The position numbers and the translations under genes are program-made. The notes under the pieces were generated by a model. That model was given only the letters and a program-made list of their open reading frames with translations, was not told the origin of the DNA and did no database searches. From Candidatus Fraserbacteria bacterium (GTDB lineage Bacteria > Bipolaricaulota > Bipolaricaulia > RBG-16-55-9 > DRXL01), in the NCBI GenBank assembly GCA_037440025.1, contig JBBIUX010000004.1, forward strand, positions 4,290 to 68,289: a stretch of 64,000 bases of DNA. The letters run 5' to 3'. Of this stretch, positions 1,442-15,718 are shown one piece after another (within the stretch, counting starts at the first letter, position 1; every line of letters starts with the position of its first letter).

Positions 1442-3856
1442 TTAGGTCTTCTCTCCCTCCTCTTCTTTGGTTAAGTTTAGATTCTTCTGAATCTCGCGCA
1501 GCCGTGCTTCAACACGAGCGTAGATCGTCCCTTCCGGAAATTTTCCCTCAGGGGTTCGTTCACCTGCTTGGAGCCCTGTAAGCAATTCGAGCCCCTCTTC
1601 GACAGTCTTGACAGCGTAAATATGAAATTGGCCTCGTTTGACCGCATCAATGACCTCTGGGCGAAGCATCAGGTTATCTATATTCTGCTCAGGGATGATG
1701 ACCCCCTGCTGGCCTGTCAGCCCCTGCATTTTGCAGATCTTAAAAAATCCGTCAATCTTCTCGTTGACGCTGCCGATGGGCTGAATTTCGCCCTTCTGAT
1801 TGACCGAGCCGGTCACGGCTAAGTCTTGCTTGAGGGGGACATCGGCCAGTGCTGAGATGAGCGCGTACAGTTCCGTGCTTGAGGCCGAATCGCCGTCTAT
1901 TTTCGAGTAGCTCTGCTCAAACGTGATACTAGCCGAGAGACTGAGCGGCTGGGCTTGCGCGAATTTTTCACCGAGCCAGCCCTTCAAAATCAAGACGCCC
2001 TTGCTGTGAATTTTCCCCGACAGTTCGGCCTCGCGCTCCACGTTGAGCACACCTTCTTTGCCCGTAAACACGTTGGCTGTGATGCGCGTGGGGCGACCAA
2101 AAGAGAAATCAGGCAATTGCAGGACAGAGAGTCCGTTCACACAGCCGACGCGCTCCCCCTGGGTGTCTACGAGGATATCGCCGCGGATGATGAGCTCGTG
2201 AATCTTCTCTTCAATGAGGCTATTGCGATAGAGCTTTTCTTCGATAGCTTTTTCGATATGTTCGGCTTTGACCAGGCGTGCCCCTTCGCGCTCGACCCAG
2301 TAGGACGCTTCGCGAACGATGGTCATCAAGTCGCTGAAGCGCGCCGAAAGTTTTTTCTGATCGCCCGTCACTTCGGCGGCGTACTCGGCCAGCCGCGCCA
2401 GGGCTGCTCTGTGAAAATGCTTGAGCCCCGGGCGCTCTTTGACGCGCGCCGCCACAAACGGGCCCAGCTGCTTAATATATCTCTCGTTCCATTCCATCTC
2501 ATCATCGAAGTCAGCCTTCACCGCGAACAATTTTTGGAAATCTTCGTCCACCGCCTCTAAGAGATAGTACAGATCGGGGCTGCCGATGAGAATGACCTTC
2601 ACAGACAAGGGCACCGGTTCAGGCTTCAAGCCTTCCGTAGTGGTAAATCCCATCATCGTTGCGGGGTCTTCGATCTGGATGCGCCCGCAGCGGACGGCGA
2701 TCTTGAGCGCTTCCCAGCTGATCCAGTACTTTAATAAATTGTCGGCGTTCAGTACCAAATAGCCGCCGTTGGCCTCGTGAAGCGAGCCGGGCTTGATCAT
2801 GGTAAAGTCCGCGGTCATCACACCGAACTGCACTCTTCGTTCGATCTTGCCAAAAAGATTTGTGTACGTGGCGTTCTCTTGCACCACGACTGGCGCGCCT
2901 TTGGTCCTGCTGTGGTCTACTAGGACGTTGATCGTGTATCGTCTGAAGAGATCAATCATCCCCGTGGGCAGGGGCACCCCTTGCCCTTCACCCTCTTGGC
3001 TCTCTTTCGAAGGCTCAGAGAACTCCTTGATGTTCTGCAGAATATCAGCTTCGACGTCTTCAAGAAATTCGAGAACACGAGAATAATTGTTGTAGCGGGT
3101 CTGCAATCTCTTTATCAAAGGCTTGACGGTGTAGAGTGCAATATCTCTGTCGAGTTCACCAATTGCTCTCAAGCGTTGTTCTTCGATTTGTTCGAGCTGG
3201 CTCATGGCCTCTTGTACAATCTCTTGCAGCTCTTCACGGTGGCGCGCAATTCTCTGGCGATCTCGCTCCGGCAGGTTGGCAAACGCTTCTTCGGTGAGCG
3301 GCTTGCCGTCGAGCAACGGCGTAGCTTGAAATCCCAGCACCGAGAGCTGAAAGAGAAACCCCCGACGTCGTGCCTCTTGGTCGACGGTGCTGGAGACTTT
3401 ATTGCGCAGCTCATTGAACTGCTCGTCGATGCTTTGGCGTTTTTTTCGGTATTCTTCGCTATGGTACGCTGCCGGGATGCGCTCGCGCAGTTTCTCGATC
3501 AAGTACTCCATGTCGCCGGCCAGCTTGCGCCCCAGCCCCTGAGGCAGAAGAACATAGCGCGGGCAGTAGGGGTCATCGAAGTTATGCACATAGCACAGAT
3601 CAGACGGGGGCGGCTCTTTGAGGCTGATTTTTTTCAGAAAAGCTTGAACGATGGAGTTCTTTCCGGTGCCTGGGCTGCCGGCCACATAGATATTGTAGCG
3701 AAAATCTTTGATGCCTAAGCCCAAATCAAGCGCGCGTACAGCGCGTTCCTGACCGATGACATCGTCCAGGGGCTCGCACTCGGTCGTGGTCTCGATCTCG
3801 AAGACCTTTGGGTCACAACGGCGGCGTAGCTCCTCAGGCTGCAAACGGCGTGCCAT
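1442..3856 (-). CDS. Lon-like ATP-dependent protease: an N-terminal AAA+ domain plus a C-terminal Lon S16 proteolytic domain (COG1067/LonB-like family).
   Basis: Walker A motif VAGSPGTGKNS. C-terminal Lon_C-like region with a Ser-Lys dyad context (DGDSASSTELYALISA ... KIDGFFKICK). Length is about 800 aa. Confidence 0.8.
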   Translation of the reverse strand: MARRLQPEELRRRCDPKVFEIETTTECEPLDDVIGQERAVRALDLGLGIKDFRYNIYVAGSPGTGKNSIVQAFLKKISLKEPPPSDLCYVHNFDDPYCPRYVLLPQGLGRKLAGDMEYLIEKLRERIPAAYHSEEYRKKRQSIDEQFNELRNKVSSTVDQEARRRGFLFQLSVLGFQATPLLDGKPLTEEAFANLPERDRQRIARHREELQEIVQEAMSQLEQIEEQRLRAIGELDRDIALYTVKPLIKRLQTRYNNYSRVLEFLEDVEADILQNIKEFSEPSKESQEGEGQGVPLPTGMIDLFRRYTINVLVDHSRTKGAPVVVQENATYTNLFGKIERRVQFGVMTADFTMIKPGSLHEANGGYLVLNADNLLKYWISWEALKIAVRCGRIQIEDPATMMGFTTTEGLKPEPVPLSVKVILIGSPDLYYLLEAVDEDFQKLFAVKADFDDEMEWNERYIKQLGPFVAARVKERPGLKHFHRAALARLAEYAAEVTGDQKKLSARFSDLMTIVREASYWVEREGARLVKAEHIEKAIEEKLYRNSLIEEKIHELIIRGDILVDTQGERVGCVNGLSVLQLPDFSFGRPTRITANVFTGKEGVLNVEREAELSGKIHSKGVLILKGWLGEKFAQAQPLSLSASITFEQSYSKIDGDSASSTELYALISALADVPLKQDLAVTGSVNQKGEIQPIGSVNEKIDGFFKICKMQGLTGQQGVIIPEQNIDNLMLRPEVIDAVKRGQFHIYAVKTVEEGLELLTGLQAGERTPEGKFPEGTIYARVEARLREIQKNLNLTKEEEGEKT

Positions 3857-3944
3857 CCAGTCTCCTTCACCGTGGGATATTCAGGTTTTTCTAGAATACA
3901 CAATCCCGCTGGGAAGAGCAAGCTGGCTGAATCGGGGGCTCCCG

Positions 3945-4664
3945 CTAGAAGACGCGGATCTCGGCATCTCCCACAACGGGCACGGAGAAGCGCGGGGAGA
4001 AACTGGTCAGTTGGCCGCTCAGTTTGAATAGGCCGGCCGGTGTGCCGGGCGGCACAATCACCTCGTAGACAACAGTCAGTGTCTGTCCGGCCTGGAGCCG
4101 TTGGGCCCAGAGCCATTGCAGCTCGGCCTTTTTGAAAAGTGCTCCAGCGTTCTGGCTCTCGCGTGCTGTCCAGCCCGAGGGGGGGTCTTCATCGAGTCCT
4201 AGGCCGTTGATGGCTTTATTGATGCGCAAGTGGACGGTGACCCGGACCGTTTGCCCTGTGGTGACTTGGCCTCCTGGTGGCAGGGTGATCTGGCGTCGCG
4301 TGGTTACAGCTGATTCAGCAATCCTTACGATCTTGCTGATGGAGCCTGTCGCGCCGCGGTTATCTGTGACTCGTAAGTTAATGCGCCAATCGCCGGCACG
4401 ATCAAAGAGCCGGGTGGTCGTCGGGGTTGTCTTCACTTCATCGAAGCGGCCATCGCCGTTGAAATCCCACTCGTATTTGACGATGGAGCCGTCGGGGTCT
4501 TTTGAGCTTGAGGCGTCGAAGAGCACGGGTGTATTTGTATCGGGATTGGTTGGGGTTGTCCGAAAATCGGCGCGGGGCGAGGCGTTGCTTTGCGCTTCTG
4601 CTGGGGAAAGCGCCAGCATTCCCACGGCTGCCAGAAGTGACAGAGCTTTTACAAAGGTTCTCAT
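3945..4664 (-). CDS. Secreted PKD-domain protein with a signal peptide. Start set at MRTFVKAL, which has an AGGAGG RBS 7 nt upstream.
   Basis: Signal peptide MRTFVKALSLLAAVGMLALSPAEA. PKD signature VKYEWDFNGDGRFDE. The C-terminal domain carries the GLGLDED..W..FK..W..Y.V.VP pattern shared with neighbouring genes. Confidence 0.7.
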   Translation of the reverse strand: MRTFVKALSLLAAVGMLALSPAEAQSNASPRADFRTTPTNPDTNTPVLFDASSSKDPDGSIVKYEWDFNGDGRFDEVKTTPTTTRLFDRAGDWRINLRVTDNRGATGSISKIVRIAESAVTTRRQITLPPGGQVTTGQTVRVTVHLRINKAINGLGLDEDPPSGWTARESQNAGALFKKAELQWLWAQRLQAGQTLTVVYEVIVPPGTPAGLFKLSGQLTSFSPRFSVPVVGDAEIRVF

Positions 4665-4689
4665 CGCACAGACCTCCTTCTTCACTCAA

Positions 4690-4754
4690 GGCCCTCACCC
4701 CGGCTGTGCCACCCCTCTCCCGTCTAGACGGGAGAGGGGTTGGGGGTGAGGGCC
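4690..4754. repeat. Palindromic element copy R2, intergenic. Outer stem GGCCCTCACCC/GGGTGAGGGCC, inner stem CCCCTCTCCCGTC/GACGGGAGAGGGG.
   Basis: Perfect nested inverted repeats read directly from the sequence. Confidence 0.8.
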
Positions 4755-4758
4755 GGTT

Positions 4759-6648
4759 TTACGGCAGCGGCCCGAAGACCGATGCTCCCGTGAGCCAATA
4801 GGCGACCAACGTCTGCAGAGTTTTTAGGTCAATCTTGCCGAAATCCACTCCGCCAGCTTGTTTGCTGGTCACGGATTTGTCTGCCAACCAGAAGAAAGAG
4901 ACAGCAACCTGAATTTGATCAAAACTGATAGTGTTCGTATCGAGCCACAGGTTCACTCTGGGATTGGCGGCATCGCTGACGTCCATGCGGGCGAAGACCA
5001 CGGGCCACGGCAGCTTAGTATTAATAACTTTGATCTCCGTCTCTCCCGTGATGGCCATCTCAAAATTGGGCGATGCACTGCTGATATTGCCACTGAGTTT
5101 GATCACTTGGGGCCCCATATTATCAGGGAGGATCAATTCGTATTCGATGGTGCGCACCGTGCCGGCCTCCAGGGCTTCTAAGAAGACCCACAGGGCTTCT
5201 TTGATTTCGCCGGCCTCTTTAGGCTCCCGCGGGATCCCGCTGTCACCAGCGACGGCCTTGAACTGTAACCCCCTGGGGAAACGCTCCATGACGACCAGGC
5301 CGTTCACACGGTCTATAGTACGAATAGTCAGCGTCACCTTGACGCGCTCCCCAGCGATGGTCTCATCATTGGGCAGGTTGGTGTCAATCGTGCGCGTCGC
5401 GATGGCCCGGGGGGTGAAGACCCGCACGGACTTCGTTGCGCTCGCCTTCTCGCCGTCCGTGTCGGTGACGGTGAGAGTTACAGTGTAGGTCCCATCAGCG
5501 CTGTAGCGATGGATCGGGCTCTGTTCGGCCGAGCGCGCCCCGTCGCCAAAATCCCACTCCCAGGAAACGATTCCTACGTCGTCGGTCGAACGATCTATAA
5601 ACGTGACAGGAGTATTAGCCGCCGGATCGGCAGGCAAGATATCGAAATTGGCCGTCGGCGGACGGTTGCGGTCACGCGTGACCAATGGAATCGGAGCGAT
5701 CCCCGGCGTGACCAACCGACCGCGCGAGTCCAGATAACTGAAAAGAGGCTTCAGTGAAGCCGTTCCCGTTTGTGAGCCGCCGACGGTAAAGCTGGCCTCC
5801 CAGACGTCGCCGGCGAGCAGGCTCTCTAGTTCCCAGACGATGGTCGTCGAACCATCAGGGTTTTTCGTCACGCGGTTGGGGGCATTGAACGTGGCAACCC
5901 CATAATTAAGAAGAGCGGGCAACGAGAGAGTGATCTTGATCTGGCGTGCCACGGTCTTCTTTCCCAAGGCTTTGGCGATCTCTTGAGAGACGGTGTCATC
6001 GAATTTTTCAAAGAACTGCCCTTGAGTGAGCCGGGCCAGCTCGCGCAGAAGAGTTTTATCCGGGTTGCGCCCGATGGCAACAGTGAAAATCACGACACCG
6101 CTCTCAGCGGAGCGTTGGGCCTGCGCAAGCGGCGTGCGCCCGATGTTGTAACGTCCATCGCTGACCAGCACCATAGCCCAGGACGCTTCTTCACGACCAT
6201 TCAAAATCAGGGTGTCGAGGGCTTTGCCCAACCCTTCGCCGACGGCCGTCTTCCCTATGGGGCGGAGTAGCTTCAGCCCTTGGCGCACGGCCTCATGGTC
6301 GAACGTCAAGGGCACGTCCACACGGGCATCGGTGCTGAACGAGACCAGCCCGACACGATCTTGCGGGGAGAGGGCCTCAACGATGGCTGAGCCGATCTTT
6401 TGCATCTCTGGGATATTGACGGTCGCTGAACGATCAATCACGAGAAAGAGATCTGTCGGGGCGCGCTCACCTTCCGGCCCGGAAGAGAGACGCAACGTGA
6501 GCGTGGCTTCTTGGTTGACAAAGATTGCCGGTGGAGAGATGTTCACAGTGAGCTGCACGGTAGGTGAAACTACTTGAGAATGCGCTGTCAGCCATCCCAG
6601 ACAGATCAAGCTCGCTGTGAGGGTGCTCAGGCGTTTCAATCTGGTCAT
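4759..6648 (-). CDS. Secreted vWA-domain plus PKD-domain protein with a dockerin-like C-terminal module. Start at MTRLKR (GGAGG RBS). The longer listed ORF reads into repeat R3.
   Basis: Signal peptide present. vWA/MIDAS-like LFLVIDRSATV..VGLVSFSTD..LVSDGRYN. PKD signature SWEWDFGDGARS...YTVTLTVTDTDGE. C-terminal tandem segments DTNTISFDQIQVAVSFFWL and VDFGKIDLKTLQTLVAYWL. Confidence 0.75.
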   Translation of the reverse strand: MTRLKRLSTLTASLICLGWLTAHSQVVSPTVQLTVNISPPAIFVNQEATLTLRLSSGPEGERAPTDLFLVIDRSATVNIPEMQKIGSAIVEALSPQDRVGLVSFSTDARVDVPLTFDHEAVRQGLKLLRPIGKTAVGEGLGKALDTLILNGREEASWAMVLVSDGRYNIGRTPLAQAQRSAESGVVIFTVAIGRNPDKTLLRELARLTQGQFFEKFDDTVSQEIAKALGKKTVARQIKITLSLPALLNYGVATFNAPNRVTKNPDGSTTIVWELESLLAGDVWEASFTVGGSQTGTASLKPLFSYLDSRGRLVTPGIAPIPLVTRDRNRPPTANFDILPADPAANTPVTFIDRSTDDVGIVSWEWDFGDGARSAEQSPIHRYSADGTYTVTLTVTDTDGEKASATKSVRVFTPRAIATRTIDTNLPNDETIAGERVKVTLTIRTIDRVNGLVVMERFPRGLQFKAVAGDSGIPREPKEAGEIKEALWVFLEALEAGTVRTIEYELILPDNMGPQVIKLSGNISSASPNFEMAITGETEIKVINTKLPWPVVFARMDVSDAANPRVNLWLDTNTISFDQIQVAVSFFWLADKSVTSKQAGGVDFGKIDLKTLQTLVAYWLTGASVFGPLP

Positions 6649-6662
6649 ATCGTTCCTCCCTT

Positions 6663-6783
6663 GGCCCTCACCCCGCCGCACCCCTCTCCCGTCTTTACGG
6701 ACGGGAGAGGGGCCGGGGCGAAGCGTTTTGGTGCAGCATTTTTTCAGAAAGCGGTCGCACCAAAACGCTTCGGGGTGAGGGCC
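6663..6783. repeat. Palindromic element copy R3, a compound nested copy of about 120 bp with an extra internal hairpin GAAGCGTTTTGGTGC...GCACCAAAACGCTTC.
   Basis: Outer stem GGCCCTCACCCCG/CGGGGTGAGGGCC and two internal perfect stems, read directly. Confidence 0.8.
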
Positions 6784-6795
6784 TTCTCTCCCGTT

Positions 6796-8931
6796 CTACC
6801 GCGTCGCCGCGGGCAACGGCTGATCTACGGGTGTATCCGTAAGCCAATACGAGATGAGTATTTGCAACATTCTAAAATCTATAGTCTTCCCGCAGGTGCC
6901 GACAACCTCTTCGTCTTCTAACCAGAGGGCGATGGCCGTCTGGATCTGCGCAAAACTGATCTTGTTTGAGAGCGCGACGTCAATGGTGTTCTGCTCAACA
7001 TTGAGGTGCGAGATGGCCACCGGAATGTCGAGGCACTCCACGACGTTCAATAATTGATCTTTGCCAACCTCGATCTGGAAGTTGGGCGAGAAGGACTCGA
7101 TCAAGCCTTGAATCACATACTGACTGATGATCTCGTCCATGGGAACGACGACTTCATAGATGACGCTGCGGCGAGAACCGGCGGGAATCTTCTCCGTGAA
7201 GATCCACGTGTTCGCCAATTGCTTGAAGGCGGCGCTGCTGCCTTCTAAAGGCTTCACTTCCCAGCGTTCGGGCAATTTTTCCGTCAGGGCCAAGCCAAAG
7301 AGATCTTTTTCGGCATGCACTTCGACCTTCACACGGAAGATATTCCCGCCTGGGGTGCGCAAATACACTTGGAAGAACGGGAGCGGCGCTAAGATCGAGC
7401 GCAGGGCTGAACCGCTGACCGAGGTATCTTCTTCGATGGTCCGATCTACGGGCACGTTCGCCAAGTGATGGGCGACTAGTTGTTTCAGCGATTGCAGGTC
7501 GAGTGGGGCCTCGCACGTCCCCGGCACCGCAGTATCCTCTTGCCAGAAGGCGATTCCACGTTGCATTTGGTCAAACGTGACATCCTCCGGCAAGCGCAGA
7601 TTGACAGTATCCGTTGCCGTATCCAAATGTGCCAACGCGACGAGAGGGGGCAAACAGGTCACGATGGAAATTCGTGAGTAGGATTCGTTGGTCTCTCCCA
7701 AGACGGGAATCTCTTTGATGTCCGGCACGGTGCTCGACACACGCCCGACGATGTCAAAATCTTGAGGCAGCGGGCCGCCGATCAATTGATCGGTCTTAGG
7801 GATGGTCACATCGTAGACGATGCGGCGGGTCTCGCCGCTGCGCACGATCGTGGGAAAGACCCATTGGGTTTGGGCGACTTTGAACGTTGCGCCGGCGCTG
7901 TCAATGGGGGTGACCTCCCAGTTCGCCGGTAGGTCTTCGTCCAAGCCAAGGCCGCTCATGGAAGTTCTCACAGTAATCGTCACGGTCACTCTAAAGGTCG
8001 TCCCTAGGGCAGCATGAGTCGTCGTGACCACGCGCCGGGCGAAAGCCACTTCTTTTTCGACGGTGATCGTTTTCGTGATCTGCGCGATGGCGCCCTTATC
8101 GTCGGTGACGCGCAGGGTGACTTTCACTTCGCCGATCTGGGTGAACGTGTGCTGCACTGTTGGTTTATCCGTAGAGATTTCGAAAATGTTGTCTGCATTA
8201 AAATCCCATTCGTACTTGACGATCTTGCCGTCGGCGACCGTGCTGGCACGAGCATCAAAAGTCACCGGCACGTTGATGCTCACCACTGATGGGGAGAACG
8301 TAAAGTCTGCTTTCGGGGGCGCTCGGCGGAAGGCGCTCAGCACTAAGGGCTCGACGGGGCTGGGCAGCTGAAATCTCTCGGGATTGACGGGATTACCGCT
8401 GAGCACCTGCCAGCCGTCAATGCCTCGGATAAATGTCGGGGTTATGGTGATCTCGAACTCATCGGGCAGCCCACTGATGACGACTCCGTCGGCGCGCTCG
8501 GCCAGCCAGCGCCAGGTCATCGTGGCTGTCGGCGGGGTGAACTCATACGTATCTGCCGGGTCGTCGCGCAAGGTAATTTGCGCTGTCGGGGGGAGACCGT
8601 CGAAGCGCAAGGTCGCCTCGCCGCCAGCAGGGTTGCCCGGCTTACTTAAGATAATAACTAAGCTCAGATCACGGGTGTTTTGATCTCGATAGAGAAAGAC
8701 CAGCGCCTGGTTGTCTATTTCTAAGCCGGTGTTCGGTTGATCGTTGGCGAAGCGATAGAACTCCACGGCCGATCCCGGTTGGGTCAGCGGGGTGATCGGC
8801 GTAGAAAACGCTCCTTGACGCGCGAGGAAGAAAGATGGCGTTTGCTCAGAAACTACCCCTTGGCCTGATCCTGTTACAGCGATCAATGCCAGCACCAAGA
8901 GCCCAGAGAGAACTTGCCGAATGACACGCAT
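6796..8931 (-). CDS. Secreted 711-aa PKD-domain protein with two 'GLGLDED' domains and two dockerin-like modules, one internal and one C-terminal.
   Basis: Signal peptide MRVIRQVLSGLLVLALIAVTGSG. PKD signature KYEWDFNADNIF...VKVTLRVTDDKGA. Repeated GLGLDEDLPANWEV.. and GLALTEKLPERWEV.. domains. Module copies ..ISFAQIQTAIALWL..KTIDFRMLQILISYWL and VTFDQMQRGIAFW..LDLQSLKQLVAHHL. Confidence 0.7.
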   Translation of the reverse strand: MRVIRQVLSGLLVLALIAVTGSGQGVVSEQTPSFFLARQGAFSTPITPLTQPGSAVEFYRFANDQPNTGLEIDNQALVFLYRDQNTRDLSLVIILSKPGNPAGGEATLRFDGLPPTAQITLRDDPADTYEFTPPTATMTWRWLAERADGVVISGLPDEFEITITPTFIRGIDGWQVLSGNPVNPERFQLPSPVEPLVLSAFRRAPPKADFTFSPSVVSINVPVTFDARASTVADGKIVKYEWDFNADNIFEISTDKPTVQHTFTQIGEVKVTLRVTDDKGAIAQITKTITVEKEVAFARRVVTTTHAALGTTFRVTVTITVRTSMSGLGLDEDLPANWEVTPIDSAGATFKVAQTQWVFPTIVRSGETRRIVYDVTIPKTDQLIGGPLPQDFDIVGRVSSTVPDIKEIPVLGETNESYSRISIVTCLPPLVALAHLDTATDTVNLRLPEDVTFDQMQRGIAFWQEDTAVPGTCEAPLDLQSLKQLVAHHLANVPVDRTIEEDTSVSGSALRSILAPLPFFQVYLRTPGGNIFRVKVEVHAEKDLFGLALTEKLPERWEVKPLEGSSAAFKQLANTWIFTEKIPAGSRRSVIYEVVVPMDEIISQYVIQGLIESFSPNFQIEVGKDQLLNVVECLDIPVAISHLNVEQNTIDVALSNKISFAQIQTAIALWLEDEEVVGTCGKTIDFRMLQILISYWLTDTPVDQPLPAATR

Positions 8932-9542
8932 CGCGGCCTCCTTCGTAACTTCTGGTCTCAGTATAGCGGACTATTTCCCCTGAGACAGTGATTCAAATTA
9001 CCCACTGCGCGCACTTCCCCTTAGCTTGAGCATAGCACAGCTTTGGGCCAAAGGCAAGCGGGCGTGATAGCCATTACAGTCTAAGAAAATTTAGCGACGC
9101 GTTCGAGGCCTGGGGCCAAAATCTGACTGGGCGTTTGTCTGGGGAATGGGTGCGCTCTGTCCGCTTTTATTTGACAAGCCTTGGACGAGGAGACGCTCTT
9201 CTCGATGTTGGAATGGGTTGGTGGTCCGTCTCTAGTCTCCCCTGGCAGACAGTCGCGTGAGGGAGCACCGCCATTTGAGTACATGGGAGGGCTACAAGCC
9301 ATTGATTCTGGACGGACCGGCTGGGCTGGGCTCGATCTTTCTCCGGGAGAGTATATTGCTTTGTGTTTTGTGCCCGATCCGGCGTCTGGGAAACCGCATA
9401 TCGAGCTGGGCATGGTTGCAAGCTTTCGGGTGAGGTGACCCTAAGAAGCGTTGAAGGGCAATGCTGGAACTGAAGGTTCGGCCTGTGATACCAGAGCGGT
9501 GGTCCGATCTCGAAGAACTCTTCGGAGAGCGTGGGGCGTGAG

Positions 9543-10175
9543 CTACATGCGTGCCGCAGGACAACGAGCGTCTGGAGCATCTGAGTCTGATGGCAGCGCT
9601 GTGATGATCTGGGGGCACGCGCCCAACAGGGCACACTCCGACTCGATGAAGTCCTTCAATTCAGTTGCTAGCTTCGTATAGAATTCCAGCTGGCTCTCTC
9701 GTATGAGCGTCTCGGCGAAGAGTTTGACCCAGCGCCCCAAGTGGGCTTCTAAGAACTTCTTCTGCGCGTCGCGACAGATCTCGGCTTGCTCTAAAAGATT
9801 ATTCTGAAGAGCCAGCGCTTCTTTGTACGCTAAAACGCTCATGAACTCCAGCTCCAAAGCCAGATGGTCCGGGCGCTCGTTCACGGAGAGTTCTAGCCCG
9901 AACGCCCTATAGAACCCCATAATATCTGCAAGCGTCGGCCCCTGCGAGACGGCGCGATTTCTGTCGTACTCGACTTCGTAGATCGGGCAGAGCACAGTCG
10001 TGCGATGGCTGAAAAGACGGTCGTATTCTAACCCCTCCCCGACACGGTCTTTCGGCCGCCAAAAGCCCCGCGCCAGCCCTGCATAGCGGCGGCTGCGCTC
10101 AAGGGCCAACTCGAAGTCGTTCACACTTCTCACCCGATCTCCGGCTCGCGAGGCCGTGGATGATAGAGCATCCAA
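9543..10175 (-). CDS. TorD/NarJ/DmsD-family redox-enzyme maturation chaperone, the delta subunit of the type II DMSO reductase family operon.
   Basis: PDHLALELEFMSVLAYKE motif typical of the TorD family. Position is immediately downstream of the alpha-beta-gamma genes. It overlaps the gamma gene. Confidence 0.6.
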   Translation of the reverse strand: MDALSSTASRAGDRVRSVNDFELALERSRRYAGLARGFWRPKDRVGEGLEYDRLFSHRTTVLCPIYEVEYDRNRAVSQGPTLADIMGFYRAFGLELSVNERPDHLALELEFMSVLAYKEALALQNNLLEQAEICRDAQKKFLEAHLGRWVKLFAETLIRESQLEFYTKLATELKDFIESECALLGACPQIITALPSDSDAPDARCPAARM

Positions 10176-11122
10176 ACCAAAATCGCGCCGAAGAGCAGCC
10201 CCAGTACCCCGATCACAACTGCCACCCAGCCGGGCACCCCGATCACGCGCACGCTCTCCTGCGCCGTCGCCGGAGATGGCGTTCCTGTTGCTCCTGCGGG
10301 CAATGCTTCGAGCGTCAGCTCATGCCAATTGAGCGAGACGGACTTACTCGCGCCGCGCTCCCCACTGGAGCCGTCCCACACAGCGAAATTCACAAAGCCC
10401 TTCTGTCCGGCCTCGAAGCTCGCATCACCCCTCAGCCCCGTGTGCAGCGCCCGCACGAAGACGACCCTCCAGCGTCCGTTCTCCCACATCCCCTTCCCCA
10501 AGACATGCTGCAGCTCTTGGTGCGTGAGCGTACCGAAGCCCTGAGCTATTAAGTTTTCGACAGGGGTCTGATGGTCTCGTTGCGAGCGCCAGTTGCCCAC
10601 ATCTCGCCCGACGTAAATCCCATAGGGGACTTCACTAGCATAGGGCGGATAGGTGCGATCAACGTCGGCGAGGCCGCCCTCGTCTATGTCGCGCTGCCAC
10701 GCCGCCTGCCATTGCCAGATATTCACAGCGTTCTGAGCATCCCCCATGAATGGGCTGGGATTGGCCTTCGGGTCAACGGGGAACTGCACAGCGACAGCGT
10801 CGCTGAATCTATCTGTTTGAGCAAGCTCTTGGTCTTGAATAGGATCAGCCCATTCTACAAGAAACGCGATCAGTCTGCCGTTGTGCAGGGCTCGCACGTG
10901 GAGCTCTTTGATTGCGCCGCCGCCGAAGGGCTTTGTCATCTGTTGCGGGCTGAGAGCAATCGTCACGGGCCGGACTTCGTTCCAAATCTGAGCCGTCGGG
11001 TCCGGGAGGAGCTCTTGATCAGTAAACTTCACCGTGAGCTTAACGGCCTGAGCTTGGGCCATCAAGCTTGGTAGAACAACCAGCAAGACTATCCATACTC
11101 TGCGCATGAGAGGCTCCTTCAT
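10130..11122 (-). CDS. Heme-b gamma subunit of a type II DMSO reductase family enzyme (EbdC/NxrC/DdhC-like EB_dh domain), with a signal peptide and a C-terminal transmembrane anchor.
   Basis: Signal peptide MRRVWIVLLVVLPSLMAQAQA. EB_dh-like motifs GAIKELHVRALHNG..AFLVEWAD..FSDAVAVQFP..NIWQW. C-terminal hydrophobic helix VPGWVAVVIGVLGLLFGAILVWML. Confidence 0.7.
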   Translation of the reverse strand: MKEPLMRRVWIVLLVVLPSLMAQAQAVKLTVKFTDQELLPDPTAQIWNEVRPVTIALSPQQMTKPFGGGAIKELHVRALHNGRLIAFLVEWADPIQDQELAQTDRFSDAVAVQFPVDPKANPSPFMGDAQNAVNIWQWQAAWQRDIDEGGLADVDRTYPPYASEVPYGIYVGRDVGNWRSQRDHQTPVENLIAQGFGTLTHQELQHVLGKGMWENGRWRVVFVRALHTGLRGDASFEAGQKGFVNFAVWDGSSGERGASKSVSLNWHELTLEALPAGATGTPSPATAQESVRVIGVPGWVAVVIGVLGLLFGAILVWMLYHPRPREPEIG

Positions 11123-12261
11123 GGCGTGTTGTGTCGCACGGCTTGATGCTCTCGGTCTTCGAAGGGCCGGATGTAGATAGGCTCTTGAATGGGCACCCGG
11201 ACGATCTCTGCACCCTTGGCATCGTAGCCGAACGCATAGCCATCGGCGACTTTGAATCGTTCAATCCAGCGCGGCGTCGCGCCAAAAAGCGTCAGACAGC
11301 CCAACAGCTGCTCGTCGTCTTTGAGATTTTTATAGAGATTGATGGCGTGCTCGACGTTGGGGCTGAACATCTGTTTCAAATAATCTAAGGGGACATGCAC
11401 CGGCGGGATATAGTAAATATTGGGCTCCAACCCTGTCTGGGGATAGAGAGGCAACGCGATCTTTTTGATGTGCACCAGAAAGTCTATGGGCTTTTCGGGA
11501 TCAGCTTTCTCCGGCGGGCTGATCCAGCCGTTCAGTCTTATTTTCCCAATGCACGTCGTGACACACTGGGTTTGGAAGCCCTGCTCGACTAACGGGTAGC
11601 ACCCGATGCACTTCTCGCTCACGCGCGTCACGGCGTTATAAAGAACTTTTTTATACGGGCACGCGCGCATACACTCCCGATACCCTCGGCAGCGCGATTG
11701 GTCTACAAGCACAACGCCGTCTTCTTCGCGTTTATAGATCGCTTTGCGCGGACACGCTGCTAAGCACGCCGGGTAGGTGCAATGATTGCAAATTCGGGCG
11801 AGATAGAAGCACCAAATTTTATGGGGCAGACTGAAAAAGTCGCCCTTCTCGACGGTGCCAGCGGGCTCGTCCTCTCCGATGTTGGGATGGGCCCAATCTA
11901 AATCATCGGGGAGATACCCTTGCACGGTTTGGCCAGTCGGAGCAGCCTCGAAGATTGTCTTGCCCTGATATGTTTGTCCGGCCCATTTGTTCACGCCGAG
12001 CAGCGAAAGAATTTTTACATCCCAGCCCAAGGGATAGAAGCCATAGGGCTTGGTCTCAACGTTGTTCCAGAACATATACTCTTGGCCGCGACCGCTTGTC
12101 CACGTATGCTTACACGCCATGGTGCACGTCTGACACGCAATGCACTTATTGGTATCAAAGACAGCCGCGAACTGTCTCTTGGGTCGAGACTCTTCGTAGG
12201 GGTACTCCATCTGACGGTTGATCTGCCAGTTTGAGACTTTCGACATGCTCCCTCCTGTCAC
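11119..12261 (-). CDS. Fe-S beta subunit (NarH/NxrB/EbdB-like, four-cluster ferredoxin) of a type II DMSO reductase family enzyme.
   Basis: Cysteine motifs CIACQTCTMACK, CNHCTYPACLAACP, CRGYRECMRACPY and CIGCYP..CVTTC. The 4-bp overlaps with neighbouring genes indicate an operon. Confidence 0.85.
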   Translation of the reverse strand: MTGGSMSKVSNWQINRQMEYPYEESRPKRQFAAVFDTNKCIACQTCTMACKHTWTSGRGQEYMFWNNVETKPYGFYPLGWDVKILSLLGVNKWAGQTYQGKTIFEAAPTGQTVQGYLPDDLDWAHPNIGEDEPAGTVEKGDFFSLPHKIWCFYLARICNHCTYPACLAACPRKAIYKREEDGVVLVDQSRCRGYRECMRACPYKKVLYNAVTRVSEKCIGCYPLVEQGFQTQCVTTCIGKIRLNGWISPPEKADPEKPIDFLVHIKKIALPLYPQTGLEPNIYYIPPVHVPLDYLKQMFSPNVEHAINLYKNLKDDEQLLGCLTLFGATPRWIERFKVADGYAFGYDAKGAEIVRVPIQEPIYIRPFEDREHQAVRHNTP

Positions 12262-12265
12262 TATT

Positions 12266-15200
12266 TTATTGTTCGGCTTCGATGAACCCGCCTGCCAAGT
12301 ATTTTTTCATTTCTTCGTTTTCGTAGGTGGGCCGATAGCCCAACCGCGCCGGGCGCCAGAGGCTCTTCAAGTCGGCTCCGCCCGGCTCGGCCTTGGTGAT
12401 CTTGACAAAGGACTCTTTGGGCGCACCCACCGGACAGTGAATATCAGGCGCGAAGCCCTGCCCGATGCTCTGTCCAAAAACGTCTTTTCTGACTAACGAG
12501 TCTGTCATCAGGGGAGGGCGCAGCCAGGCGCGGGTGCAGCTCTGGTGGCCGCCGTAGCGAAACATCGCTTGGTAATTTGTCTCTGGGTTTTTGGCGAGAT
12601 GATCGGGCCGGGTCTCGTGAGCTTTCACAGTCCCATGCGTCGCTTGGTACATGTTGAACCACATTCGGACGACGCCGCGCGGCGTACCGTTATAATAGCG
12701 CGCTCTGCCCATCAGCCGCGCGATCTTATAGTCGGGATCGCCGGGCTTGGCCCCGCGATATGGACGGTCTTCTGGGTCGGCGTCAATCCAGATATAGTCA
12801 CCATCTTCAATGCCGAGTTCTTTGGCGTCTTGGGGGTTTATATCAGCGTAGACTTCGCCGACCCACGGGCTGCGCTTGTCTCTTCTGTAAATATCCCCGA
12901 AGGGCCCGAAATAGACGGCTAAGACGTCCAAATCTACCGGGGTCGTGTGTGCCCCATGACGATACTTGGGTGTGATGAAGATAAATTTGAGCCCGTCTTT
13001 GGCGCGCGGGTGTTGTGATCGCACGACTTCGTCAGGGGTCTTGATGACGTTGCGCACCTGGCGTGTCTCAGGACTCAAATCATCGCGCTTGAGCCCATAC
13101 TGTTCGGGAGGTGTGGGCTTGAGCGCCTCGTGTTTTTGTGGGCCGACGATCACATTGGGCTCGTGCGGCGTGGCGTCCACCGGCTCGCGATAGACCGGGA
13201 GATTCTCTCCGTGTTCAATAAATTCGTCCTCTTCGCGATAGAATTCTAATCGTCCGGTCTTGGTGTACCACGGTTTGGACTCTTGCGTCTGCTCCCAGCC
13301 CACGATCTTCGGATACGTTCTTAACAGCTTGAGCATCGGTGTGCCCTTCTTGGCTTGCTCTTCGAGCTCTGTGAACTGATACCCGCGCAGGGAGCTGCTC
13401 GCGTCGCAGATTCTCTGAAGATACACATCAACGCGATTCTCGCGCACGAAGTGCCAATAGTCTTTGAATCGCTGATCGCCTGTCAGTTCAGCGAGCTTTT
13501 CAGCGACCCCCGCGTAGGTCTCGATGTCGCTGCGGGTATCGAAAATTCTGGGCAAGGGCGTGCGGGGAAAGACCTGCACGAACGGATTGGTCACCGAGCC
13601 GCACATGTCAGGGTATTTCAGCTCACCCCACGAATCTACCCCAAAGACGACATCGGCGTACTCACACGACATCGTCCACCACCATTCGTTCACAATAATG
13701 GCTTCGATCTTAGGCAGCGTGTTGTGAATGACATCGTAGCCCCACTTGGAGTTGCCCAAGAGTGAATTACTATTGGCGAACCACATGAATTTAGTAGGTG
13801 TGGGGATATGAGTCTTGCCGGTGAAGAGCTTTTTGCCCACTCTCAGAGGCCGGTCCCCGTAGTTATAGTAATGGGCCGACTCGGCCTTGGCGTACGATTT
13901 TGTCTTGGCGGGCTTGGTCTGGTCCAGCTCGGTATTGAACGGGTCTTCGGCGACATATTGGGGCAGGCCGTTGAAGAGCGCCACTCTGTAATTCCCGGCG
14001 TAGCTGCCGGGGCTGCCCCCGAAGTGCCCAATATTTTTCGTGAGAGCTGCAATTAAGAAAAGCGCACGGTCTTTCAGATCAGCGTTAAAGAAATGGTTGG
14101 GCCCCATGCCGTGTGACAGGAGGGTCGAGGCTTTGTTCGCGGCAATCTGGCGGGCCAGATTGACGATGGCTTCGGATGGAGCCCAACTCACTTCGGAGAC
14201 TTTTTGAGGGGTGAACTCTTTCAAATACTCTTTGATGAGATCGAAGACGGGTCGAACTTTGATCTCTTTGCCATCGAGCATCTTGACGGTGAGTGTGCCT
14301 TCTAGGGCTAGATCGAGCCCGGTGAAAAATTCCCCGACGTGGTCGCGGGTAACGACCGCGGGTTTGTTCTTAACGGCGTCCCATACGACAAAATCTCCCC
14401 ACTCGGCGCGGGCTTTCTCGGAGATATACTGGACACCTTGAGTGACATTGGGGTTAGGCTTTTCATCGAACTTGAGCACCTTGACGTAGTTGCTGAGCTC
14501 GGCGGGCTGGTAGTCTTTGATGATCTCAGAGGCCCGCAGGAGTTTGAGCGTGTCCATGCGCACCAGCAGGGGCAAGTCCGTAAATGTCTTGACATACTCT
14601 TCGTCATAGAGTTTCTCGTTGATAATGAAAGAAGCGACACCGAGGGCGAGGGCGGCATCGGTCCCCGGCCGAATGATAATGACTTCGTCGGCTTTGTTGG
14701 AAGTGGCTTGGTACTCGGTCGCAATAGTGATGACTTTCGCGCCGCGCTGGCGGGCTTCGGTCAGCCAATGGGCGTCGGGCATCTTTGTGCAGATCCAGTT
14801 CATGCCCCAGAGCGTGATCAATTTGGCGTTCTCCGCGGTGAAGAGATCGAAGTCGACGGTCTGCTGGCCGGTGACCATCGGGTGTCCTGGGGGCAGGTCC
14901 GTGTGCCAGCTATAGTTGTCCCAGACACGGCCACCGAGCGCTTGCTTGGGGCTGACATTCCGAATATGCTGATCGAGCAAGGCGAGCATATTAGCGAATC
15001 TGGCCAGCCCGTAGATGCGCGTCGCACCCAAGAAGGGCATCCCGCCACGCGCTTTCACTGTTTGGGTGCCGGCTTCGTGTGTCGCTTCGATCATGGCCGG
15101 GTCGTAATTCTGCGCTTGCAGGCGTTTGGTCCCTTCGGGGCCGGAATACGTCTGAGCGATATTGAGTAGGGCTTGGGCGACCAGTCCATAAGCTTCATCA

Positions 15201-15718
15201 AACGAGAGCTTCAGCCAAGTATCTTGGCCGCGATTGAAGTACTCTTTCGGGGGTGCGCCCGTGCGTGGGTCTCGTGGGAAGCCCGCTTGCACCCAATCTG
15301 AAAAACCCTTGCGCACCCAGACGCCCTTCACCCGGCGATCCCCATAAAAACGTCGTCCGAGAGCGAGTCCCTTTTGGCAGCAGCGCGGCTCCCACCGCGC
15401 TGAGCTCTGGTTTCCATAAAGATCGCGTGCTTCGCTGTAGCCGTACGTCGGCCCGATGCGCACCACTACCCCGTTGCGCACATACGCCCTCAACAGACAG
15501 TTATGGGTGTCATTGGGAGCGCACAGAAACGGAAAAGAACTATCATAGCGAAACTGATCTCTATAGATCTTCTCCCAGTCGCGATCGGGATAGAACTGTA
15601 AGGGGTTTTGAATATCGGGAACGAACTGGAACCCTGACAGGCCCAAGGCGTCAGCAGCTAGAGCAACTCCGGTGACTGTTACGGTGGCTTTCAGAAAGCG
15701 TCGCCGCGAGACCTTCAT
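12266..15718 (-). CDS. Molybdopterin catalytic alpha subunit of a type II DMSO reductase family enzyme. It is Tat-exported and has a NarG/NxrA-like size.
   Basis: Twin-arginine signal [26 protein letters not shown]. Length is 1150 aa, in the NxrA/NarG size class and larger than EbdA/PcrA/SerA. Molybdopterin oxidoreductase architecture. It is followed by beta, gamma and delta genes. Confidence 0.8.

Follow-up and report, generated by a model that had tools for sequence, protein, structure and literature searches.

A probable divergent DUF11/CLIPPER-NEW3 beta-sandwich, with a helical tail, in three adjacent genes for secreted PKD proteins of Bipolaricaulota

Do three adjacent genes for PKD proteins in a Candidatus Fraserbacteria genome share a new protein domain, or a distant form of one that already has a name? 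The genes lie on the minus strand of contig JBBIUX010000004.1 (assembly GCA_037440025.1), in a stretch of 64,000 nucleotides (contig positions 4,290 to 68,289) that we call the window and whose own numbering is used throughout. We refer to them as C (6796..8931, 711 aa), B (4759..6681, 640 aa) and A (3945..4685, 246 aa); in this order they are separated by gaps of 114 and 73 bp. An initial annotation, made from the letters alone, had described three secreted proteins with PKD domains and a common domain of about 100 residues, marked by the pattern GLGLDE[DK]xPxxW, which it did not recognise and thought might be a new module restricted to the surface proteins of this lineage. We found that the common domain is real and that it probably (at a probability of about 0.7) represents a divergent subfamily of the DUF11/CLIPPER-NEW3 group of immunoglobulin-like (Ig-like) beta-sandwiches, a reading that also takes in a helical tail module, a conserved operon and a proposed complex of the cell envelope.

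The shared domain and its family

The shared domain is about 125 aa long and occurs in four copies, one in A (residues 127-246, 3948..4307), one in B (residues 426-554, 5020..5406) and two in C (copy 1, residues 296-424, 7660..8046; copy 2, residues 507-631, 7039..7413; all on the minus strand), so that the 711-aa protein does carry two copies, as had been claimed. A MAFFT alignment of the four gave 29-34% identity and 14 invariant columns. In BLASTP comparisons, with E-values computed for a nominal database of 1e6 residues, five of the six pairs were detected: A with C copy 1 (7e-17), A with B (1.8e-15), A with C copy 2 (6e-15), the two C copies with each other (2.3e-15) and B with C copy 2 (5e-8), while B and C copy 1 gave no direct match. 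Because these five pairs have E-values from 5e-8 to 7e-17, we regard the four copies as homologous and not as chance resemblances.

The motif is looser than first described. The literal GLGLDE[DK]xPxxW is found only in A (GLGLDEDPPSGW) and in C copy 1 (GLGLDEDLPANW); the same segment reads GLALTEKLPERW in C copy 2 and GLVVMERFPRGL in B, the most divergent copy (GLVVMERFP). What all four keep in the alignment is the core G-L-x-x-x-E-x-x-P, and its glutamate is invariant in the orthologues, as E332 and E551 in 68 C sequences and as E466 in 22 B sequences. The statement that each protein ends in the domain or repeats it also needs correction, since only A ends in it; each of the copies in B and C has a module of about 75 aa after it.

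We modelled the sandwich together with the module that follows it (C residues 293-500, hereafter the unit) with AlphaFold2 (AF2) on a 34-sequence alignment. The model reached a predicted local distance difference test score (pLDDT) of 96 and a predicted template-modelling score (pTM) of 0.90, and consists of an all-beta sandwich over model residues 1-132 and then three helices, which agrees with the earlier suggestion of an Ig-like beta-sandwich in proteins of a secreted or surface type. The top Foldseek match of the unit model in the Protein Data Bank (PDB) was 9ifr, the crystal structure of CLIPPER, that is, of DUF11 (E 1.8e-6; template-modelling score, TM, 0.66 on the target); similar folds came next, namely glycosidase accessory Ig-like domains, cohesins and integrin calf domains. 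The paper behind 9ifr renamed DUF11 as CLIPPER and describes it as a CnaA-like member of the E-set clan CL0159 (10.1101/2025.04.25.650565).

Sequence profiles led to the same group. When excised, the A copy scored 29.9 bits (E 6.6e-7) against PF10633 (NPCBM_assoc/NEW3) with a match spanning residues 145-227, and the whole A protein scored 26.9 bits, both above the gathering score of 24.4; the other three window copies had no match to this family. PF10633 presumably shares with DUF11 one clan of small beta-sandwiches. DUF11 itself (PF01345) matched 34 of the 68 C orthologues at E<=0.01, with a best E of 1.9e-7, and NPCBM_assoc matched 5 of them. An exhaustive hidden Markov model (HMM) search with the unit profile against 1.84 billion cluster representatives returned 1,327 proteins at E<=1e-3, of which 512 reached E<=1e-10 and 110 reached E<=1e-30; it superseded a word-indexed homologue search, which had given 4 proteins for the unit alignment. 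The unit profile matched P0154, a canonical DUF11 protein of 13 repeats (1078 bits on PF01345), at E 1.2e-47. Two further proteins, P0126 and P0132, are intermediates: their sandwich copies scored 64-94 bits on the unit profile, and they also scored above the cut-off on PF01345 (35.3 and 31.6 bits). Finally, hhalign aligned the sandwich profile with the DUF11 repeats of P0154 over 77 columns (Prob 80.9%, E 1.2e-5), placing 'GLGLDEDLP' on 'GVELAEALP', and the control comparisons (PKD with DUF11, the N-terminal domain of C with DUF11, and the sandwich with PKD) remained at Prob 0.2-1.8%.

Taken together, the Pfam matches, the recurrent DUF11 matches of the orthologues, the similarity to 9ifr, the exhaustive search and the profile alignment argue that the module is a divergent member of the DUF11/CLIPPER-NEW3 group. 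With this assignment the claim of a new domain falls, although the C and B copies of the window still score under the Pfam thresholds. The claim of a lineage-specific domain falls with it, because the matches include a subtilase (S8 peptidase) labelled Candidatus Aerophobetes and a protein labelled Chloroflexota. Subtilases and repeat adhesin-like proteins are found among the sandwich relatives, and some related sequences match PF13584 (BatD). The value of the domain as a discovery is thus small, the superfamily having been named and its structure solved, and at most there is a case for widening the Pfam DUF11 and NEW3 models to cover these copies.

Several observations weigh against the assignment. 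C copy 1 scored 15.6-16.9 bits against DUF11, under the gathering score of 24.6, and the Pfam scan gave no DUF11 match for the copies of A and B or for C copy 2. The Foldseek E-value is modest, and cohesins, integrin calf domains and GH123 N-domains lie within one to two orders of magnitude of 9ifr. The DUF11 profile used in hhalign was drawn from the repeats of one protein and has an effective sequence number (Neff) of 2. When the unit alignment was used as a profile against PDB sequences, 9ifr was not retrieved and only a chance match appeared, WhiB6, at E 1.2; phmmer with the canonical DUF11 protein likewise found nothing among PDB sequences. The assignment is built from one copy above threshold, from intermediate sequences and from the fold.

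The copies of the window also differ from canonical DUF11 in several ways. Both have an Ig-like, CnaA-like sandwich and a segment of the form 'G-x-E/D-L-x-E/D-x-L-P' with a conserved acid, both are exported, and both have PKD domains alongside. Here, however, the domain is present in one or two copies per protein of 246-711 aa, separated by the tail in C and fused to it in B and C, instead of forming the tandem stalks of long fibrillar adhesins. CLIPPER domains commonly contain a Lys-Asn isopeptide bond catalysed by Asp or Glu, and some members lack it (10.1101/2025.04.25.650565). Canonical DUF11 repeats run ..LEVSK.., ten residues, ..G, then ..VELAEALP.. and then ..LSNTV... At the first-strand position of the canonical Lys, matched by spacing alone, at least 90% of the copies in the family studied here have Arg (R300 in C), and the acid of the motif (E332 in C, E466 in B) is retained. 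With Arg in the place of Lys an isopeptide is unlikely, and the sandwich is probably an isopeptide-less variant held by non-covalent contacts. Against this stands the nature of the equivalence of Arg and Lys, which is based on spacing and not on a structural superposition.

The helical tail and the alternative readings

The module of about 75 aa, which we call the tail, follows the sandwich in B (residues 555-640, 4762..5019) and both sandwich copies in C (tail 1, residues 425-500, 7432..7659; tail 2, residues 632-711, 6799..7038; all on the minus strand). The three copies matched each other in BLASTP at E 9e-5 to 3e-15, with E 2.8e-15 between the two C tails and 1.9e-9 between the B tail and C tail 2. 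In the AF2 model of the whole C protein each C tail forms three helices, at residues 429-434, 453-465 and 479-491 in tail 1 and at 636-641, 660-671 and 686-697 in tail 2, and the sandwich and the tail are predicted to pack together into a single rigid unit. Internally the tail consists of a 2x22 aa duplication, whose halves (Is.xQxQxAixxWlxDxxV and idxxxlKxliAxxLxxxPV) align in hhalign at Prob 92% and E 6.6e-7. The cysteine pairs C426/C473 and C633/C680 are kept in the C family (C426 and C473 in at least 90%) and have no counterpart in the B copy; such a pair is usually present in the tail, as a probable disulfide.

No Pfam or NCBIfam model matched the tail, either in the window copies or in the family members scanned. 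Among 258 fetched proteins the most frequent arrangement was sandwich-tail-sandwich-tail (96), and sandwich-tail (48), two sandwiches (19) and a single sandwich (17) were also seen. At times the tail stands apart from any sandwich in these proteins, and for this reason it appears to behave as a module of its own. Three relatives, P0132, P0142 and P0248, have tandem sandwich copies without the tail and end in a type I dockerin, which in P0132 and P0142, the two with listed boundaries, begins at most a few residues from the end of the last sandwich. These dockerin-ended relatives hint at a use of the sandwich in cellulosome-like assemblies elsewhere.

The tail was compared with the type I dockerin (PF00404) and this identity was not supported. 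The likeness consists of the duplication of a segment of about 22 residues that forms a helix, and of the same place after the sandwich as the dockerins of the relatives; the tail differs by its disulfide and by one more helix at the N-terminus, and it showed neither sequence similarity (hhalign with three dockerins, Prob 1.2%) nor the DxNxDG calcium loops, nor any Pfam Dockerin match in the scanned members. The comparison bears on a wider alternative, in which the sandwich is cohesin-like, the tail is a calcium-free derivative of a dockerin fused to it in cis, and the proteins assemble with one another through tail-sandwich swaps. Cohesins do occur among the Foldseek matches (5n5p, 2xdh, 5lxv and 6kgf, E 1e-5 to 2e-4), the tail has one helix per half as in dockerins, a true dockerin follows the sandwich in the three relatives (at the place of the tail in P0132 and P0142), and the tail packs on the sandwich in the unit model at the pTM of 0.90. 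The poor hhalign score and the missing loops speak against a dockerin, and the structural comparison speaks against a cohesin: TM is about 0.5 for cohesins and 0.66 for CLIPPER, the sandwich had no Pfam match to Cohesin (PF00963), and the nine-strand jelly-roll was not its best structural match. We consider this alternative unlikely.

A carbohydrate-related reading seems slightly less probable still. It would make the sandwich a NEW3-type carbohydrate-binding or glycosidase-accessory module, and the operon a set of polysaccharide-binding proteins. By score the A copy is a formal member of NPCBM_assoc/NEW3, and accessory domains of GH123, sialidase, lacto-N-biosidase and NgaP2 were found by Foldseek. 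That family, however, was defined from accessory domains of glycosidases, whereas Pfam and NCBIfam scans of A, B and C found no glycoside hydrolase or carbohydrate-binding module (CBM) family; moreover, three of the four copies are under its cut-off, the matched parts of the glycosidases are themselves linker or accessory Ig-like domains, and among relatives the domain is a part of subtilases and of adhesin-like repeat proteins. The view taken in the initial annotation, of a truly new beta-sandwich family confined to this lineage, can draw on the three window copies that have no Pfam match above threshold and on public records, in which these proteins are annotated only as 'PKD domain-containing'. 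It is largely refuted by the NEW3 score of the A copy, the DUF11 matches and intermediates, 9ifr, the profile alignment at 81% with its clean controls, and the occurrences outside the group, and we regard it as very improbable. A divergent DUF11/CLIPPER-NEW3 sandwich accounts best for these data.

A more specific proposal adds the tail to the isopeptide-less sandwich. The tail would be an autonomous extracellular module for which no model exists, a helical duplication of 2x22 residues that is usually disulfide-locked and is sometimes found without the sandwich in subtilases of other phyla, and the tail and the sandwich would both mediate the assembly of a complex of C, B and A, conserved in the phylum, with a structural or adhesive part in the toga-like envelope or S-layer of Bipolaricaulota. 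This we put forward tentatively, as a possibility that is rather doubtful at present.

The three proteins and their possible role

Gene A encodes a signal peptide, a PKD domain and one CLIPPER-like domain, without a tail. Gene B encodes a signal peptide, a VWA domain, an Ig-like linker, a PKD domain, a CLIPPER-like domain and a tail, and gene C a signal peptide, an N-terminal beta domain without a family, a PKD domain and two successive pairs of CLIPPER-like domain and tail. As had been noted at the outset, all three have a PKD domain and one also has a VWA domain. The PKD domains match PF18911 (PKD_4) in A (residues 34-120, 4326..4586, 59.4 bits, E 3.6e-16), B (residues 339-420, 5422..5667, 68.8 bits) and C (residues 204-291, 8059..8322, 55.6 bits; all on the minus strand), against a Pfam cut-off of 27 (PF18911/PF00801). 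Among the three proteins, Pfam found VWA in B alone (PF00092, 67 bits; residues 77-230, 5992..6453, minus strand). Its metal-ion-dependent adhesion site (MIDAS) is intact (D83-x-S85-x-T87, T145, D175), and all 22 B orthologues keep D83, S85 and T145 and have T or S at residue 87, while 21 of them keep D175. B also matches the NCBIfam BatA model weakly. The B sandwich of the window has a five-residue insertion, EAGEI (residues 489-493, about 5203-5217, minus strand), which is absent from all 21 other aligned B orthologues.

The N-termini of all three proteins can be read by eye as Sec signal peptides, with a positive n-region, a hydrophobic core and a c-region of small residues (A, MKKEV..LLAAVGMLALSPAEA/QS; B, ..LSTLTASLICLGWLTAHS/QV; C, MRVIRQVLSGLLVLALIAVTGSG/QG), in line with the initial description of signal-peptide proteins. 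In the whole-protein AF2 model of C, which has a pLDDT of 90, residues 1-30 are disordered (pLDDT below 50). Reading of the three sequences by eye revealed neither a C-terminal transmembrane segment nor an LPXTG-type signal.

The N-terminal domain of C (residues 31-203, 8323..8841, minus strand) is all-beta, with strands as its only secondary structure, and has conserved columns that include the invariant residues D123, D124, D127, W142, D148 and G149, forming an acidic cluster, LRDDPxDTY ... DG. When excised it matched no Pfam family, it had no NCBIfam match, no named family was found for it among the 68 orthologues, and its matches to PDB sequences were chance ones. Foldseek with the whole-C model returned generic multi-Ig proteins (PrgB, integrins and alpha-2-macroglobulins), which is uninformative on this domain.

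Residues 37-245 of A align with residues 205-414 of C at 35-42% identity. Since this alignment runs across both domains, the PKD domain and the sandwich appear to have been duplicated as one block. C had near-full-length matches in 74 clusters (31-91% identity), and the named ones among them bear the labels Bipolaricaulota, Acetothermia or Fraserbacteria. A scan of genomes, which was seeded with the pattern and is biased to copies containing GLGLDE, gave 35 loci, all within Bipolaricaulota, Acetothermia or 'Fraserbacteria', with a few labelled 'uncultured Thermotogae'. In 22 of the 35 the three genes share a strand and keep the order C-B-A, and 3 more, whose contigs end there, have C and B in this arrangement. 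At the C-B-A loci the identity of B and A goes down to 32-50%, and the order holds where the flanks differ, as in one Fraserbacteria contig with ribosomal protein L13 and SecA. It counts against our main reading that the C orthologues most distant from that of the window (30-39% identity) stand alone, with neither B nor A nearby.

Some loci depart from this arrangement. At three of them (L024, L028 and L022) B is in two pieces, a VWA part and a part with PKD, sandwich and tail, representing either two genes or a frameshift. Three others (L032, L034 and L035) hold a second, shorter C copy that was matched over about 500 residues only; L034 and L035 come from the same metagenome-assembled genomes as L022 and L027. 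From these second copies it appears that such genomes carry another C-like gene without adjacent B and A.

How could the three proteins act? In the model that we propose, A, B and C are paralogues through the cassette of PKD domain and sandwich and form one conserved operon; they would be exported without a recognisable membrane or wall anchor, co-expressed, and act jointly outside the cytoplasmic membrane. B would contribute the VWA domain with its conserved MIDAS and C the N-terminal beta domain with its invariant acidic cluster, and the PKD and CLIPPER-like domains may serve as rigid spacers or assembly modules and not as catalytic or ligand-specific parts. Their joint product is likely a secreted, metal-dependent (MIDAS) complex of the cell envelope, with a binding or possibly a structural role in a toga-like envelope. 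For the first cultured strain of Bipolaricaulota, a Gram-negative stain and a toga-like sheath bearing a hexagonal S-layer have been described (10.1101/2025.11.21.689855), and an earlier genome study, from 2018, reported no recognisable adhesins (PMC6092417); both make an envelope role plausible. We found no description of the A, B and C proteins in the literature on Acetothermia or Bipolaricaulota.

Two known systems resemble parts of this arrangement. The Bat operon (Bacteroides aerotolerance) likewise combines a VWA protein with a MIDAS and DUF11-like sandwich proteins (BatD). Bat proteins, however, have membrane anchors and are accompanied by MoxR and DUF58, whereas A, B and C are anchorless, secreted and PKD-bearing, and no MoxR or DUF58 gene is adjacent. 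Sortase-assembled pili also involve three genes, for a VWA tip adhesin and two CnaA-like Ig proteins (CnaA/CnaB pilins). The likeness is one of parts only: the present gene set lacks a sortase, and its proteins have neither the isopeptide lysine nor an LPXTG signal joined to a terminal transmembrane segment. What is modestly new is the tail and the N-terminal domain of C, both without a family model, together with the operon. A tight three-gene operon for exported VWA, PKD and CLIPPER-like proteins, conserved throughout a deep-branching and nearly uncultured phylum with an unusual envelope, is modestly useful, and with a first Bipolaricaulota isolate reported, A, B and C can be sought as concrete candidates in proteomes of the envelope or toga.

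Neighbouring genes

A type II DMSO-reductase (dimethyl sulfoxide reductase) family operon (9543-15718, minus strand) is found directly upstream of C. It consists of genes for a molybdopterin alpha subunit (12266..15718, 1150 aa), a 4Fe-4S beta subunit (11119..12261, 380 aa), an EB_dh haem gamma subunit that has a hydrophobic segment at its C-terminus (10130..11122, 330 aa) and a delta protein, a chaperone of the NarJ/TorD type (9543..10175, 210 aa), all on the minus strand. The gamma and delta genes also precede C in close relatives (L008 and L011). Between the chaperone gene and C are 610 bp (8932-9542) with no convincing open reading frame and no Rfam match, and a scan of the whole window against Rfam gave no RNA family. 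The equivalent gap upstream of C is about 240-350 bp in relatives, and that of the window may hold the promoter or a regulatory region of the operon. A scan for promoters and terminators gave nothing decisive, apart from a weak terminator-like hairpin just after A (3922..3905).

Downstream of A, at a distance of 88 bp, is a gene for a LonC/LonB-like AAA protease (1442-3856, minus strand, 804 aa; AAA_32, LonB_AAA-LID, LonC_helical and Lon_C). A LonC-like protease follows A in 14 related loci, with identity down to 50-60%, which may reflect either a functional linkage or mere synteny.

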